Shown here: piece after piece, positions 30,915 to 46,192 of the stretch
Numbering within the stretch: position 1 is the stretch's first letter
Layout: each line of letters starts with the position of its first letter
Source of the DNA: Escherichia phage S143_2
Reading direction: 5' to 3' (one strand)
Sequence record: MZ189261.1
Length of the DNA stretch: 64,000 nucleotides
Notes under the pieces: generated by a model
Databases searched by the model: none
What the model was told of the DNA's origin: nothing
The model's input: only the letters and a program-made list of their open reading frames with translations
Translations under genes and position numbers: made by a program

Positions 30915-31244
30915 TTATACTCTAGGCTTTTGAGCTTGTTTGGTATTGGATTCCCATGCGGCTTTGGTAATTTTGTTAGCGGCATAACCAAAGGCACTAG
31001 ATAGAACACCTTTAGAGTTGAATACATCCAATCCAATAAGTACACCGGCTGTGTTAAATTTAGGAGCAAAGTACGCATTAGTTTTAGAAAGAGCTTTTTT
31101 CAATTCAGGGTCTTGAACCAAGCCATCAAAAACGCCTTTACTATTTACTTTATATGTTACTTTGGGATTTTTAGCTTCTTCGATAGCAGCTTTCTGTTCC
31201 GCAGATAATGTAACTTCAGTGATAAACTCTTGATATGTTTTCAT
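30915..31244 (-). CDS. internal protein (CTS-bearing), IPII-like position
   Basis: 109 aa; N-terminal MKTYQEFITE capsid targeting sequence. Confidence 0.6.
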   Translation of the reverse strand: MKTYQEFITEVTLSAEQKAAIEEAKNPKVTYKVNSKGVFDGLVQDPELKKALSKTNAYFAPKFNTAGVLIGLDVFNSKGVLSSAFGYAANKITKAAWESNTKQAQKPRV

Positions 31245-31282
31245 ATGTTTCCTTTAAATGTAAATAGGCCTAAGTATCGGCC

Positions 31283-31861
31283 TTAATTACCACGGGCTGC
31301 ATTAGCAACGGCATAAGCGTACTGAACATTAGCGTCTTTAAACGTACCTTTAGAGGTATCTATTTCTGCCTTAAAGCCGCCTTTAGCCATAACATCGGCA
31401 AATTCTTTACGGAAGGCCATTGCATCAAGACCTTTCCATGATGATTTATGCTTGGCAAATTCAAGACCTGCGAAGTTGACAGCTTTAGCCAATTTATTAT
31501 CAATGACCCATTTACCGGCTTTAGGCACAAACTTCGGTCCTTTTTGTTTAGAGAACAGTTTTAAATTCCAGCGACGAAGATCACTGTCGGCTTTAACAAA
31601 AGCTGCGTCTAAGTTACTAGCAACAACATCTTCAATATGAGCAAATTTAAGTCCGTCAACTTCAATATTTAGATCGTTACGCCAGCGAAGTCCTTCCCAA
31701 GCGAAGGCTTTAAAATCAGAAGCCTTTGTGGCTAGATATCGTTCAATTGGAGCAGTTTTAGGGTCAAAGCCGTTTCCACCACGATAAGTCCACTCGTCCT
31801 TATTAATGCCTTGAGCTTTTCCTGCAAAGGCCTCGGCGATAAATTCTTTATACGTTTTCAT
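31283..31861 (-). CDS. ipIII: internal protein III-like (CTS-bearing)
   Basis: 192 aa (T4 IPIII 194 aa); N-terminal MKTYKEFIAE. Confidence 0.6.
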   Translation of the reverse strand: MKTYKEFIAEAFAGKAQGINKDEWTYRGGNGFDPKTAPIERYLATKASDFKAFAWEGLRWRNDLNIEVDGLKFAHIEDVVASNLDAAFVKADSDLRRWNLKLFSKQKGPKFVPKAGKWVIDNKLAKAVNFAGLEFAKHKSSWKGLDAMAFRKEFADVMAKGGFKAEIDTSKGTFKDANVQYAYAVANAARGN

Positions 31862-31887
31862 TTTTGTTCCTATTGTTTTAATTTATG

Positions 31888-32202
31888 TTATTCTTTAGGG
31901 AAGTTTTTAGAGTATGCGTCGTAAAGTTTATTGCCGATGCGACGGAAGACTTTAGCTGCAAAACGGTTTTCAGGGTTTTTAATCATGATTTGCATCATGT
32001 AAGTTCCTGCGTCCGAAAGAGCTTCTTCATAGTACCCATTAATTTCTTTAAGAGTCCTACGTTTACCACCAGGACCATCAACAGTAATTTTCCATTTACC
32101 TGTAGAAGTGCGGCTCGGTGGCTCAACTTGTTCAATCCAAATATAACCACCTTCAACGCGTTGGTTGGCTGATTCTGCAATAAATTCTTTATACGTTTTC
32201 AT
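31888..32202 (-). CDS. internal protein (CTS-bearing)
   Basis: 104 aa; MKTYKEFIAE leader. Confidence 0.6.
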   Translation of the reverse strand: MKTYKEFIAESANQRVEGGYIWIEQVEPPSRTSTGKWKITVDGPGGKRRTLKEINGYYEEALSDAGTYMMQIMIKNPENRFAAKVFRRIGNKLYDAYSKNFPKE

Positions 32203-32214
32203 TTTTTGTTTCCT

Positions 32215-32263
32215 TGTTTGTTTTGATAGAGTAATTATACCATATTAATACTTAAGCGTAAAC
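32215..32263 (-). promoter_or_regulatory. early promoter module (family C variant)
   Basis: minus strand GTTTAC-gcttaagtattaatatgg-TATAAT-tactctatcaaaac upstream of IP gene. Confidence 0.45.
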
Positions 32264-32266
32264 TGT

Positions 32267-32527
32267 TTAAGCTTTACCGCCAGAAATAATTCCGAAGTTG
32301 TTAAAATCGTATCCAATATCGTCAACATCTACTTTAGGGCTTGCTACAACATAAGCAATTTCACTACGTTTTGCATAGGTGTTGATTTCTTTACCATCGC
32401 CACCTAAGAAAAAATACCCATTACGTTTTAATGAGCCAAAGTCTTCCGCATCACCAATGAAAGCTTTAACTTTAAATTTGGGGCTTTTGGCATCTGCTTC
32501 AGAGATAAATTCTTGGTACATTTTCAT
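32267..32527 (-). CDS. internal protein (CTS-bearing)
   Basis: 86 aa; MKMYQEFISE leader. Confidence 0.55.
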   Translation of the reverse strand: MKMYQEFISEADAKSPKFKVKAFIGDAEDFGSLKRNGYFFLGGDGKEINTYAKRSEIAYVVASPKVDVDDIGYDFNNFGIISGGKA

Positions 32528-32533
32528 TTTTCC

Positions 32534-32947
32534 TTAGTAAATTGATTTACCATAGTATTTGTACCAAGTAGGGCGCTGAGCAATTTTTTCATCTAAGCGT
32601 GCTTGACTTATCGCAATGGACGCTTCGGACGGGACATAATTATTACGAAATTCGGCAGGGATGTCGGAAATATCCTGGACAGTCGTGTCCTTGATTTTGA
32701 AACCACGTTTCAAGCATTCAGCGATTAGCTCGATTTGTCGTAAACGTAAAAATTCAAGTTTGTCGTAAAAGAATGTTACGTGACCTGTGCCTAAGATAAA
32801 TGTTGGAGAGATTTTAAAATCCTTTACACGTTTACCGTTTTGAACATGTTTACGGACTGCACCAAATACGCGTGGTAATTCACGATACTCAGCCATAAGA
32901 TGTTGGTCGGTCAGTTCAGAAACAAGTGTTAAATTGATACGAGTCAT
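32534..32947 (-). CDS. denV: endonuclease V (pyrimidine dimer DNA glycosylase) DenV
   Basis: 138 aa from ATG 32947: [35 protein letters not shown]... matches T4 DenV. Confidence 0.9.
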
Positions 32948-33005
32948 AAGTTCCTCCAAGTAGTTGATGAATGTATAGTATCAAAGTCCTTGGAGGAAGT
33001 AAACA

Positions 33006-33287
33006 CTATTTTTCTGAAGCGCCTGAAATATATTTTTCAAGACGTTGTTTCATCAGCGAGCCGTTCTTAGCGATTTCTTCCGGTTTATCGCACATACGCA
33101 ACAAGGCTTCAAGCTTAACGATATCGCTGGTACGTTCAAATTTGCGAGTATCTATCTTACTAGCAAGTTCAGAAATACGTGCTAATAGACTTTCAGCTTC
33201 AACCAAAGCTGCACCTAGCTTAGTTGCAAATGTGTCAGTAGCTTCGTTAAGAATAGATTCTGATAAAAATTCACTATATGTTTTCAT
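33006..33287 (-). CDS. internal protein (CTS-bearing)
   Basis: 93 aa from ATG 33287; [10 protein letters not shown] leader. Confidence 0.55.
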
Positions 33288-42192: not shown

Positions 42193-42269
<77 letters not shown>

Positions 42270-42273
42270 TATT

Positions 42274-42348
42274 TGGCGGACGTGATAGGATTCGAACCTA
42301 TAACCAATCGCTTAACAGGCGATCGCTCTGCCATTGAGCTACACATCC
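42274..42348 (-). tRNA. tRNA-Asn (anticodon GUU)
   Basis: 75-nt cloverleaf; anticodon stem ATCGC/GCGAT, loop CUGUUAA; T-arm GGTTCGAATCC; encoded CCA. Confidence 0.8.
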
Positions 42349-42352
42349 AAAT

Positions 42353-42439
42353 TGGTGGGGAGTGATGGAGTCGAACCACCCGAGTCGCAATGACAATGGA
42401 TTTACAGTCCACACCGCTACCTCTACGGGATAACTCCCC
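42353..42439 (-). tRNA. tRNA-Tyr (anticodon GUA)
   Basis: 87 nt with long variable arm; anticodon loop CUGUAAA; acceptor GGGGAGT/ACTCCCC; encoded CCA. Confidence 0.75.
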
Positions 42440-42451
42440 TAATTCATAATT

Positions 42452-42526
42452 TGGTGGCCCTGGGTGGAATTGAACCACCATCTGGCGATTATGAGTCGCT
42501 TGCTTGAACCTTCCAGCTACAGGGCC
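42452..42526 (-). tRNA. tRNA with CAU anticodon (Met or Ile2)
   Basis: 75-nt cloverleaf; anticodon loop CUCAUAA; position after Thr corresponds to T4 tRNA-Ile. Confidence 0.75.
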
Positions 42527-42527
42527 T

Positions 42528-42604
42528 TGGTGCTGATTGACGGAATCGAACCGCCGACCTTCTCATTACAAGTGAGTTGCTCTACCTACTGAGCTAAATC
42601 AGCA
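42528..42604 (-). tRNA. tRNA-Thr (anticodon UGU)
   Basis: 77-nt cloverleaf; anticodon loop CUUGUAA; T-arm GGTTCGATTCC. Confidence 0.8.
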
Positions 42605-42608
42605 AAAC

Positions 42609-42698
42609 TGGCGGAGGCGATAGGATTTGAACCTATGAGTCGCCGGAGCGACTGCCGGTTTTCAAGACCGGTGCATTAAACCACTCTGCCACGCCTCC
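42609..42698 (-). tRNA. tRNA-Ser (anticodon UGA)
   Basis: 90 nt with long variable arm; anticodon loop CUUGAAA; acceptor GGAGGCG/CGCCTCC. Confidence 0.8.
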
Positions 42699-42700
42699 AG

Positions 42701-42774
42701 TCTCCATACAAGGATTTGAACCTTGGGCCTCCTGATCCCAAATCAGGCGCTCTACCAAACTGAGCTACACGGAG
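42701..42774 (-). tRNA. tRNA-Pro (anticodon UGG)
   Basis: 74 nt; anticodon loop UUUGGGA; T-arm GGTTCAAATCC; CCA not encoded. Confidence 0.75.
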
Positions 42775-42784
42775 TAAATTAAAT

Positions 42785-42858
<74 letters not shown>

Positions 42859-42863
42859 AAATT

Positions 42864-42950
42864 TGGTGCGAGAAGTGGGACTCGAACCCACAAGGAAATC
42901 ATTCCGCAGCATTTTAAGTGCTGTGCCTTTACCAATTTGGCCATTCTCGC
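42864..42950 (-). tRNA. tRNA-Leu (anticodon UAA)
   Basis: 87 nt with long variable arm; anticodon loop CUUAAAA. Confidence 0.8.
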
Positions 42951-42951
42951 G

Positions 42952-43024
42952 CTGGGAATAAAGGACTCGAACCTTTGCATCCTGGAATCAAAATCCAGTG
43001 CCTTACCAACTTGGCTAATTCCCA
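42952..43024 (-). tRNA. tRNA-Gln (anticodon UUG)
   Basis: 73 nt; anticodon loop UUUUGAU; T-arm GGTTCGAGTCC; CCA not encoded. Confidence 0.75.
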
Positions 43025-43415: not shown

Positions 43416-43810
43416 CCTTCATCAACAATAGTATGAGTATGAGCATTTACAATTTGCCACCAATCAAAGCGATTAGAACCATACATCAGGTTGTTCTCAT
43501 TTTCTTTGATAATGTCACGGAGTTCATCTTCAGTAGCGGCTTTCGCTATTAAATCAGCATATCCACCGCGAGGATAATAATTATCACCTGCAAAAAGTAA
43601 AAAGTTCGGTTTAATATTATTGAACTCTTCAAGAGTAATAACTTTTCCTGTCGGTTGAACAATCTCTACATATTTATATCCTAATTTTTGAGCAGCATCT
43701 ACTGCTTCAAGCAAAGTATCATGAGCCCATCCAATTTGACAACCTGGCTTTTCAGATGGATTAGCCTGATAATCCGCGTACACTTTATACATTCTATTCA
43801 CCTTTTGCAA
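43412..43810 (-). CDS. hypothetical protein
   Basis: 132-aa ORF. Confidence 0.45.
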   Translation of the reverse strand: MQKVNRMYKVYADYQANPSEKPGCQIGWAHDTLLEAVDAAQKLGYKYVEIVQPTGKVITLEEFNNIKPNFLLFAGDNYYPRGGYADLIAKAATEDELRDIIKENENNLMYGSNRFDWWQIVNAHTHTIVDEG

Positions 43811-43979
43811 TTTTATCCATAACGATAGCGATTAAGCCGATTAGAAATGCTACTACCAATGAGATAGAATTTTCGGTTGTTGTCAGTAGTCCACAAATGA
43901 ATCCTACAAACATCGAAAAACTAAAAGCCATTGAAGCAATTACTACAGCAACATTACGAATCAGTTCAGCGCGTTTCAT
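43794..43979 (-). CDS. small membrane protein
   Basis: 61 aa, two hydrophobic helices. Confidence 0.45.
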   Translation of the reverse strand: MKRAELIRNVAVVIASMAFSFSMFVGFICGLLTTTENSISLVVAFLIGLIAIVMDKIAKGE

Positions 43980-44048
43980 TTTATTCTCCTCGGTAGTTGA
44001 TAGGGTAATAGTATCACTACCCTATCTAAAAGTAAACGGTTTTATAAA

Positions 44049-44357
44049 CTATTTTATTCCGCGTGATGCAATCGTATTCTGCCGTTTAACGCCAGTTTGT
44101 TTAAAGTTATGATTGTCAAGTTGATCGGTACGAGCAACTCCGAATGATGATTTAATCTTAGCTTTAGATCCTTTAGTTATAGAAATAAACATCTCGGGAG
44201 CCCCTTTCTTAAAGTCCGAAGCAATTACTTCAACACCGTTCTTAGCAAGTGACCTCAGAATTGCTTCCGCGTACTCATCATCAAGACCCGCTTGAGTATG
44301 AATAACGAATGTCTTTGGTGCAGCCGCTTCATTGATAAATTCTTTATAGGTTTTCAT
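44049..44357 (-). CDS. internal protein (CTS-bearing), IPI-locus
   Basis: 102 aa; MKTYKEFINE leader; early promoter module upstream. Confidence 0.6.
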   Translation of the reverse strand: MKTYKEFINEAAAPKTFVIHTQAGLDDEYAEAILRSLAKNGVEVIASDFKKGAPEMFISITKGSKAKIKSSFGVARTDQLDNHNFKQTGVKRQNTIASRGIK

Positions 44358-44417
44358 TTTATTTTCCTAATTAATTTTGATGAGATAATAATACCACAAC
44401 CCTATTTAAAAGTAAAC

Positions 44418-44690
44418 TCATTTTAAATAAATTGCGTATTTTTTATAACCCGCCGACTCATGACGAAGACCCTTATCATTAGCAAAACGCTCAATGTTGT
44501 TAATTTGATTCTGGTCAAGTTCAGAGATGTCAAACACGAAAAAGTTACGTTTGTTACCAACTGTTACATAGTCAGTTAAATCAATATCATATAGGTAATT
44601 GATGTCAGCAATCAAAGTCTTGACAGCTTTGCTAATTTTTACTTTTTCGTTAAAAGTAGCTTCATTGATAAATTCTTTATAGGTTTTCAT
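44418..44690 (-). CDS. internal protein (CTS-bearing), IPI-locus
   Basis: 90 aa; MKTYKEFINE leader. Confidence 0.6.
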   Translation of the reverse strand: MKTYKEFINEATFNEKVKISKAVKTLIADINYLYDIDLTDYVTVGNKRNFFVFDISELDQNQINNIERFANDKGLRHESAGYKKYAIYLK

Positions 44691-44704
44691 TTTATTTACT
44701 TGAG

Positions 44705-44754
44705 GTCGTTTATTTGATAGGACTACTATAACATAGTCCTACAGGTGTGTAAAC
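44705..44754 (-). promoter_or_regulatory. early promoter plus stem-loop module (family C)
   Basis: minus strand GTTTAC-acacctgTAGGACTatgt-TATAGT-AGTCCTATCAAATAAAC. Confidence 0.5.
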
Positions 44755-44767
44755 TGTTTTGTAAAAA

Positions 44768-45453
<686 letters not shown>

Positions 45454-45457
45454 TTTA

Positions 45458-46192
45458 TTACCTTAAGATTGTTTCAATTTTAGAATAAAGCTCTTCTAAA
45501 GAGCCGTCGTTTGTAATAACTAAATCGCCTTCTTCAATAGGCAACCCAGCTTCTGTAATATGTTTATCGGTGGATTCCGTACCAGAGCGAACCACATGAA
45601 TAACTGTAGCACCCATCGCTCTAGCGGTTTCCATTTCATGGACTTGGCGGGTATCGGTCACAACGTAGTAATCGAAATCGCTTCCAATATAATCCATATA
45701 GTTTAATGCAAAAAGTTTAACCCAATACATACGGTCAAATAAATTAACGACAACATCCGTACCGAGGGCTTGCATAAGACGGCGGATTGACCATGTGTCG
45801 TTGATATTATTTATAGCTTCGCGCAGGGCTTCATATGGTTTAATATCTAGATACGAATATCCACCTTCTAACGATGATAATACTTTAACATTATTAATTG
45901 GTAAATATTGACTTTGCAAATAAATTAGCGCTTCTTCCAATAATTCAATAACATCCAACTTATTGAGATTTAATGGTGTTTCACGGTCGTATCCAATGCC
46001 TTCAAAGTATTCGTATTTCAACTCTGTGAATACATCAGGATTTTCAGCATGCCTACGTTCCCAGGCTATTGCTAGAGCGTCTTTAATCGGATATGCCAAT
46101 TGATATTTTACTGATTTAAAGTTTGAATTGATGTAATCAGCAGTAGTATCTTTGCCACTACGTTTGATGCCACTTAAAAAGATTAGCTCCAT
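45458..46192 (-). CDS. 1: deoxynucleoside monophosphate kinase gp1
   Basis: 244 aa; P-loop GIKRSGKDT; T4 gp1 is 241 aa. Confidence 0.9.
   Translation of the reverse strand: MELIFLSGIKRSGKDTTADYINSNFKSVKYQLAYPIKDALAIAWERRHAENPDVFTELKYEYFEGIGYDRETPLNLNKLDVIELLEEALIYLQSQYLPINNVKVLSSLEGGYSYLDIKPYEALREAINNINDTWSIRRLMQALGTDVVVNLFDRMYWVKLFALNYMDYIGSDFDYYVVTDTRQVHEMETARAMGATVIHVVRSGTESTDKHITEAGLPIEEGDLVITNDGSLEELYSKIETILR

Follow-up and report, generated by a model that had tools for sequence, protein, structure and literature searches.

Which genes take the place of T4 ipI when the slot of that gene holds two ORFs with the same start, how did they come to be there, and what would they do for the phage? 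In the 64,000-nt stretch of Escherichia phage S143_2 analysed here (sequence record MZ189261.1; hereafter the window), two minus-strand ORFs, 44418-44690 (90 aa) and 44049-44357 (102 aa), both have the N-terminus MKTYKEFINEA. On the coding strand the genes run in the order gene 1 (dNMP kinase), 57A (Pfam GP57 match, E=5.9e-23), Acb1/57B, ip9, ip7, trna.4, trna.3, trna.2 and ten tRNA genes. T4 has the identical gene order, with ipI alone occupying the slot between 57B and trna.4, and this slot is one of two internal protein (IP) loci, the other lying near ipII/ipIII. A first-pass annotation of the window had rightly assigned the two ORFs, which lie between Acb1/57B and trna.4, to the position of the single T4 ipI, but had placed them "directly upstream" of 57B/Acb1; because the coding-strand order is 57A, Acb1, Ip9, Ip7, trna.4, both genes in fact lie downstream of it. 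The 22 kb around the locus shows 96-97.5% identity with Mosigvirus (RB69-like) genomes. The genes of the slot and its flanks are as follows.

44768..45223, minus strand: Acb1 / gp57B homologue, left conserved flank (Pfam Acb1, E=1.8e-58)
44418..44690, minus strand: ip9, predicted 90-aa internal head protein precursor (phrog_7673, RB15 Ip9)
44049..44357, minus strand: ip7, predicted 102-aa internal head protein precursor (phrog_2667, WG01/T2 Ip7)
43794..43979, minus strand: trna.4 homologue, 61 aa, hydrophobic, right conserved flank (phrog_1692, E=1.4e-32)

Just downstream of trna.2 lies the ten-tRNA cluster (42193-43024, minus strand; Arg, Asn, Tyr, Met, Thr, Ser, Pro, Gly, Leu, Gln), compared with eight tRNA genes and an inserted segB in the T4 tRNA cluster.

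The 90-aa protein matched phrog_7673 'internal head protein' from end to end (residues 1-90 of 90, E=9.2e-55) and is 93% identical to RB15 Ip9 (UniProt Q38376). The 102-aa protein matched phrog_2667 over residues 1-102 (E=5.6e-41), with 97% identity to WG01 Ip7 and 91% to T2 'internal head protein 7', and in the ATK47 record its orthologue is annotated as Ip7, citing RB15 Ip7 CAA84464. From these sequence matches we identify the two ORFs as ip9 and ip7, unrelated members of the T-even internal protein set. Repoila, Tetart, Bouet and Krisch (1994, EMBO J 13:4181) reportedly named Ip9 and Ip7, for phages RB15, K3 and T2, and are said to have described polymorphic IP loci with promoter/stem-loop elements. 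Relative to the Ip9 and Ip7 of RB15, K3 and T2, the leader and locus in the window are identical and the differences amount to a few substitutions; vB_VIPECOMC06 shares the Ip9-then-Ip7 order and differs in the promoter module ahead of ip9. Scans of both proteins against Pfam, NCBIfam and PADLOC returned nothing above threshold, and a PDB sequence search returned chance matches only (E of at least 0.03); none of these searches pointed to a target. In GenBank the exact proteins of phage S143_2 stand side by side as QWV60229.1 (Ip9) and QWV60228.1 (Ip7), both labelled 'hypothetical protein'; several other GenBank records also leave Ip7/Ip9 unannotated, so the annotation could be improved.

The shared start was then traced at the DNA level. 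As the first-pass annotation had said, both ORFs begin with MKTYKEFINE, and these starts lie within a 39-nt perfect direct repeat that consists of AAATAAA-ATG and 10.7 leader codons (ribosome-binding site, ATG and leader). Both match the internal-protein leader consensus MKT[YF][QK]EFIxE (about 10 residues), and the leader motif MK.[YFW].[EDQ][FYW] starts only 7 ORFs in the 64-kb window. The perfect repeat and the restriction of the motif to 7 ORFs indicate that the shared start is not due to chance. The coordinates of leaders and repeats are:

44661..44690, minus strand: Ip9 capsid-targeting sequence MKTYKEFINE, with a predicted prohead-protease site between I-N-E and A
44328..44357, minus strand: Ip7 capsid-targeting sequence MKTYKEFINE, with the same predicted site between I-N-E and A
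44659..44697, minus strand: 39-nt perfect direct repeat, copy 1, left recombination boundary of the Ip9/IpI swap
44326..44364, minus strand: 39-nt perfect direct repeat, copy 2

The T4 prohead protease gp21 follows the cleavage rule (L/I)-x-E. At the sequence level, the I-x-E-[A/S] cleavage motif is conserved in the Ip9 and Ip7 family alignments, and the longer pattern M-K-x-[YF]-x-E-F-I-x-E-[AS] is conserved in Ip families. In T4 the leader directs internal protein packaging (PMC3012670). The Ip9 and Ip7 leaders of one genome tend to have codon variants in common: ACC-TAT-AAA in the window, ACA-TTT-AAA in vB_VIPECOMC06 and TAT-CAA...ACT in Moon. Leader identity was 37-43 of 48 nt within genomes and about 38-45 between genomes, with no clear separation; since the within-genome identity is not clearly above the between-genome identity, gene conversion between the adjacent leaders of one genome is only suggestive.

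The remaining five leader-bearing ORFs lie together on the minus strand at the second IP locus (30915-33287):

30915-31244, minus strand: leader-bearing ORF, 109 aa
31283-31861, minus strand: leader-bearing ORF, 192 aa (phrog_5341 internal virion protein)
31888-32202, minus strand: leader-bearing ORF, 104 aa
32267-32527, minus strand: leader-bearing ORF, 86 aa (phrog_2667)
33006-33287, minus strand: leader-bearing ORF, 93 aa (phrog_3499)

With ip9 and ip7 this makes seven predicted internal proteins, whose cargos are mutually unrelated. The ORF at 32267-32527 matched the Ip7 PHROG phrog_2667 over residues 1-84 (E=2.7e-20), with an empty BLASTP result for its cargo against Ip7, and may be a distant Ip7-family paralogue. 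In phage VR5, a gene annotated ip7 lies about 11 kb away from ip9.

Behind the leader, the two proteins have nothing in common that we could align. BLASTP of Ip9 against Ip7 aligned residues 1-11 only, and profile-profile comparison of the family alignments likewise recovered the leader only (11-15 residues, BLASTP included). The mature domains were also compared to T4 IPI*, and only the first few leader residues aligned. The ORFs are thus not IPI variants by alignment. T4 IPI has the same slot, the same kind of leader, the same promoter/ribosome-binding-site module and similar size and basic charge, but its leader is 19 residues long (MKTFKEFTSTTTPVSTITE) compared to 10 in Ip9 and Ip7, and the cargos are dissimilar. 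T4 Ip2 and Ip3, the inhibitors of GmrSD ECOR21 and ECOR17, share the leader-plus-cargo design, at another locus and with unrelated cargos. The possibility raised at the outset that both genes are close orthologues of characterised IPI variants therefore holds in its first half only, because they are close orthologues of named, functionally uncharacterised Ips and not of IPI.

Each gene is preceded by a predicted promoter of T4-early type with an extended -10 element, in agreement with the first-pass claim that each has its own early promoter module; these are consensus matches only. Counting the one ahead of trna.4, the modules are:

44718..44753, minus strand: predicted promoter module ahead of ip9, TTTACA-17-TATAGT with TG (consensus at 44753-44725)
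44375..44417, minus strand: predicted promoter module ahead of ip7, TTTACT-17-TATTAT with TG (consensus at 44416-44388)
43997..44037, minus strand: promoter/stem-loop module ahead of trna.4, right edge of the cassette array

The ip9 module forms an 8-bp stem-loop (44718-44741) around the -10 element (-5.1 kcal/mol, z -1.95), and the trna.4 module forms one at 43999-44026 (-6.9 kcal/mol, z -4.0). Both window promoters align with the T4 ipI module, which likewise has a stem-loop around its -10 element (-8.1 kcal/mol). The trna.4 and ip7 modules are 83% identical (41-nt promoter repeat). The ip7 module has a left arm of the trna.4-module type and a right arm of the T4-ipI-module type, and because its two arms differ in type it forms no stem (fold 0 kcal/mol). 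We read this module as a recombination scar. The late-promoter motif TATAAATA was absent next to ip9 and ip7; the nearest upstream one is at 45808-45815.

The boundaries of exchange became visible in the comparison with phage ATK47, whose slot holds IpI then Ip7 where the window holds Ip9 then Ip7. The flanks of the first promoter module are shared between the two phages (the central stem-loop differs), and the sequences are then identical through the first 8 leader codons. After leader codon 8 the cargos are unrelated, Ip9 in one phage and IpI in the other, and homology comes back within the ip7 promoter module, in its right half. The swap is thus bounded by the leader at one end and by the promoter module at the other.

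Comparing this anti-restriction locus across T4-like phages, an idea already put forward in the first-pass annotation, extended the picture to 37 related loci (33 IMG/VR loci found with Acb1, and four GenBank loci), in which the slot contained 0, 1, 2, 3 or 4 leader-bearing genes with many cargo types. The Ip9-then-Ip7 pair also occurs in vB_VIPECOMC06, UFV-AREG1, Citrobacter phage Moon and locus L027. UFV-AREG1 has IpI, Ip9, Ip7 and then a 74-aa Ip in its slot, and locus L010 has the reverse order, with Ip7 before Ip9. The slot is empty in two IMG/VR loci (L008, 3948-4071; L009, 3206-3330) whose trna.4 and Acb1 are, respectively, 100% and 99-100% identical to those of the window; one stem-loop promoter, of the window ip9 type, drives trna.4 directly in both. 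These empty slots suggest that the Ip9-Ip7 block was gained or lost very recently. A 77-aa 'ip7 protein' of Escherichia phage OLB35 (P0017) is a chimera, with an N-terminal part from the Ip7 core (91% over 43% of Ip7) and a C-terminal part from Ip9 (80% over 39% of Ip9); it would fit a deletion or recombination event that joined neighbouring Ip7 and Ip9 cassettes arranged as in L010.

We propose that the cassette unit consists of an early promoter, a ribosome-binding site, the 10-residue leader and a private cargo domain, set in a hyperplastic slot, and that homologous recombination, acting on the leader repeats and on the repeats of the promoter/stem-loop module, would bring such units in, remove them and swap them. 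The PeSL cassettes of T4-type phages (Arbiol 2010; Comeau 2014) likewise combine an early promoter with a stem-loop around the -10 element and flank small variable genes, and there too the exchange boundaries fall inside the promoter/stem-loop modules. The S143_2 locus differs from them in that the leader serves as a second recombination site. More than 30 IP variants have been described, and PeSL-type elements mediate modular shuffling; the authors of these studies see the elements of the IP locus as analogues and not homologues of PeSLs, with T4-early instead of sigma-70 promoters and weaker AT-rich stems (PMC2839356, PMC4122927).

We next consider what the cargos look like. Predicted mature Ip9 (residues 11-90) is 9.3 kDa with pI 8.2, and predicted mature Ip7 (residues 11-102) is 9.9 kDa with pI 9.9; both are Lys-rich, and these properties match those of T4 IPI* (8.0 kDa, pI 9.0). 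The AlphaFold (AF2) model of Ip9 has pLDDT 82 and pTM 0.69 with the topology alpha-beta-beta-alpha-beta-beta. The Ip7 model (pLDDT 65) shows a core, residues 12-72, of the topology beta-alpha-beta-beta-alpha, plus a tail. Both cargos are predicted to be generic small alpha+beta domains. The C-terminal tail of Ip7 (residues 74-102, at 44049-44138; VARTDQLDNHNFKQTGVKRQNTIASRGIK) has 29 residues and a pI of 11 and is near-invariant across the family, yet is predicted to be disordered (pLDDT about 40). It may contact DNA, or it may serve as a binding motif that becomes ordered on meeting its partner.

The Ip9 cargo (residues about 17-90) has relatives beyond the T-even phages. Kagunavirus siphophages encode leaderless 72-aa proteins with about 50% identity to it; the homologue in the Escherichia phage JSSK01 (L005, 4007-4225) matched phrog_7673 at E=6.8e-27 and heads an early rightward operon beside HTH regulators, a typical anti-defence position. 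About 20 close variants of the JSSK01-type homologue occur in metagenomes. In Ackermannviridae the Ip9 cargo forms the C-terminal domain of 660-861-aa proteins, carried by SKML-39, P0056 and a contig labelled 'Enterococcus phage Efm 3-10' (UNVERIFIED_ORG). SKML-39 and the contig with the 'Efm 3-10' label (L007, 1279-4503; L006, 1883-5128) have three ORFs in a row whose N-termini resemble leaders (MATPSFLNFLEE, MKPFIEYFKE and MKGFKDFLAE); the first ORF (660-783 aa, phrog_3867) ends in the Ip9-like domain (phrog_7673, E=1.7e-8). The products of the three ORFs may serve Ackermannviridae as internal or ejection proteins. The Ip9-cargo family is small: when 1.8 billion cluster representatives were searched exhaustively by HMMER with this cargo, only 8 clusters matched, all of them unannotated.

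Taken together with the literature on T4, our main reading, to which we give a probability of about 60%, is that ip9 and ip7 are unrelated, exchangeable leader-cargo cassettes whose products are injected and block a first-line host defence. The leader would bring the precursor, made during infection, to the prohead scaffolding core, and the prohead protease would then cut the leader off after I-N-E. The basic mature proteins (about 9-10 kDa) would stay with the packaged DNA and be ejected with it into the next host, and each would most likely bind and neutralise one narrow-specificity, first-response host defence. The most plausible class of target would be a nuclease that attacks the modified DNA of the phage, and the block would precede any phage gene expression. 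The sequences show which proteins the two genes encode, that both carry the leader, how the cassettes are built, where exchange takes place and how variably the slot is filled; packaging, cleavage, injection and an anti-defence role most likely carry over to Ip9 and Ip7 by analogy with T4 Ip1-3. IPI* inhibits GmrSD (CT596) (PMC3012670), Ip1, Ip2 and Ip3 each block one GmrSD subtype with no cross-protection (PMC12373910), and IPIII is active in the cytoplasm without its leader (PMC9391042). From these studies and those on T4 packaging, our reading is that Ip7 and Ip9 are injected and inhibit a first-response host defence.

The same studies raise the more specific idea, also found in the first-pass annotation, that Ip7 and Ip9 are both inhibitors of GmrSD-type type IV restriction enzymes with new specificities, like Ip1-3. 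All three characterised T4 Ips inhibit distinct GmrSD subtypes, ATK47 and RB69-type relatives have IpI itself at the Ip9 position, as if either protein could fill the same role, and the diversity of GmrSD is far larger than the panel tested. The test against GmrSD enzymes that the first-pass annotation had suggested has largely been carried out: when Silas et al. assayed ip4-10 on 8 active GmrSD variants, no inhibition was reproducible (PMC12373910 section 10, Suppl. Fig. 9; 2025), and an apparent signal of ip7 against CLS_011 failed in triplicate plaque assays (PMC12373910). Ip9 and Ip7 also lack sequence similarity to IPI, and homologues of the Ip9 cargo occur in Kagunavirus siphophages, for which hmC DNA is not known. 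The GmrSD-specific proposal is thereby weakened, and we regard it as possible but rather doubtful.

The distribution of the Ip9 cargo suggests, tentatively, a different kind of target. The cargo could be a portable anti-defence module of roughly 70 residues, directed at a widespread first-line defence that is not hmC-specific and reaching it by three routes: by injection through the leader in T-even phages, as a leaderless early gene in Kagunavirus, and as a C-terminal domain in Ackermannviridae. If the target is not hmC-specific, the negative GmrSD tests would be explained. Compared to the literature consulted, the leaderless and fused relatives are only a mildly new lead, and a hypothetical one.

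Injection against a host defence also has to be weighed against other roles. Ip9 and Ip7 could lack a specific host target and work mainly in the head, as basic counter-ions or as aids to DNA packing, which would suit small, basic, Lys-rich mature proteins, the contacts that lysines of T4 internal proteins make with DNA phosphates in the head (PMC3012670), and the conserved, very basic (pI 11), predicted-disordered tail of Ip7. Generic charge, however, would not account for private and well-conserved folded cargos, and it would leave unexplained both the rapid presence/absence turnover between near-identical phages and the leaderless early-gene homologues of Ip9; moreover, Ip1-3 all have specific targets (PMC12373910). 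We consider this role improbable. Still less probable is that the leader is vestigial and that Ip9 and Ip7, expressed from early promoters of their own, work in the cytoplasm like any other early protein, as an early-type promoter for each gene with no adjacent late-promoter motif, and the leaderless early Ip9 cargo gene of Kagunavirus, might suggest. The leader is kept in both families, down to the 39-nt perfect repeat and I-x-E-[A/S], and T4 ipI has the same promoter arrangement and yet its product is packaged (PMC3012670).

That ipI, or one ancestral ip gene, was duplicated in tandem and the copies then diverged has hardly any likelihood left; this reading was rejected on the leader-only profile-profile alignment. 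The adjacent genes do begin with the same 39 nt and have similar promoter modules, but past residue 11 neither BLASTP nor profile-profile comparison found similarity, the two predicted topologies differ, other phages carry orthologues of each cargo alone or in different combinations and orders, and the Ip9 cargo is present without a leader in unrelated phages. Of the two origins that the first-pass annotation had offered, cassette exchange is thus borne out by the ATK47 boundaries, and duplication is not.

We return to the reading of ip9 and ip7 as exchangeable cassettes for injected defence inhibitors. Both the sequence and the concept were already known, and the locus is an ordinary T-even internal-protein cassette array. 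What stays interesting is the role of Ip7 and Ip9, since only Ip1-3 among more than 30 Ip variants have known targets. Here the leaderless and fused relatives would give a practical handle, as a 72-aa protein lends itself to direct expression in hosts and a comparison across three phage groups would help to triangulate a common target. Better annotation of Ips also matters for the prediction of host range in therapeutic T4-like phages.
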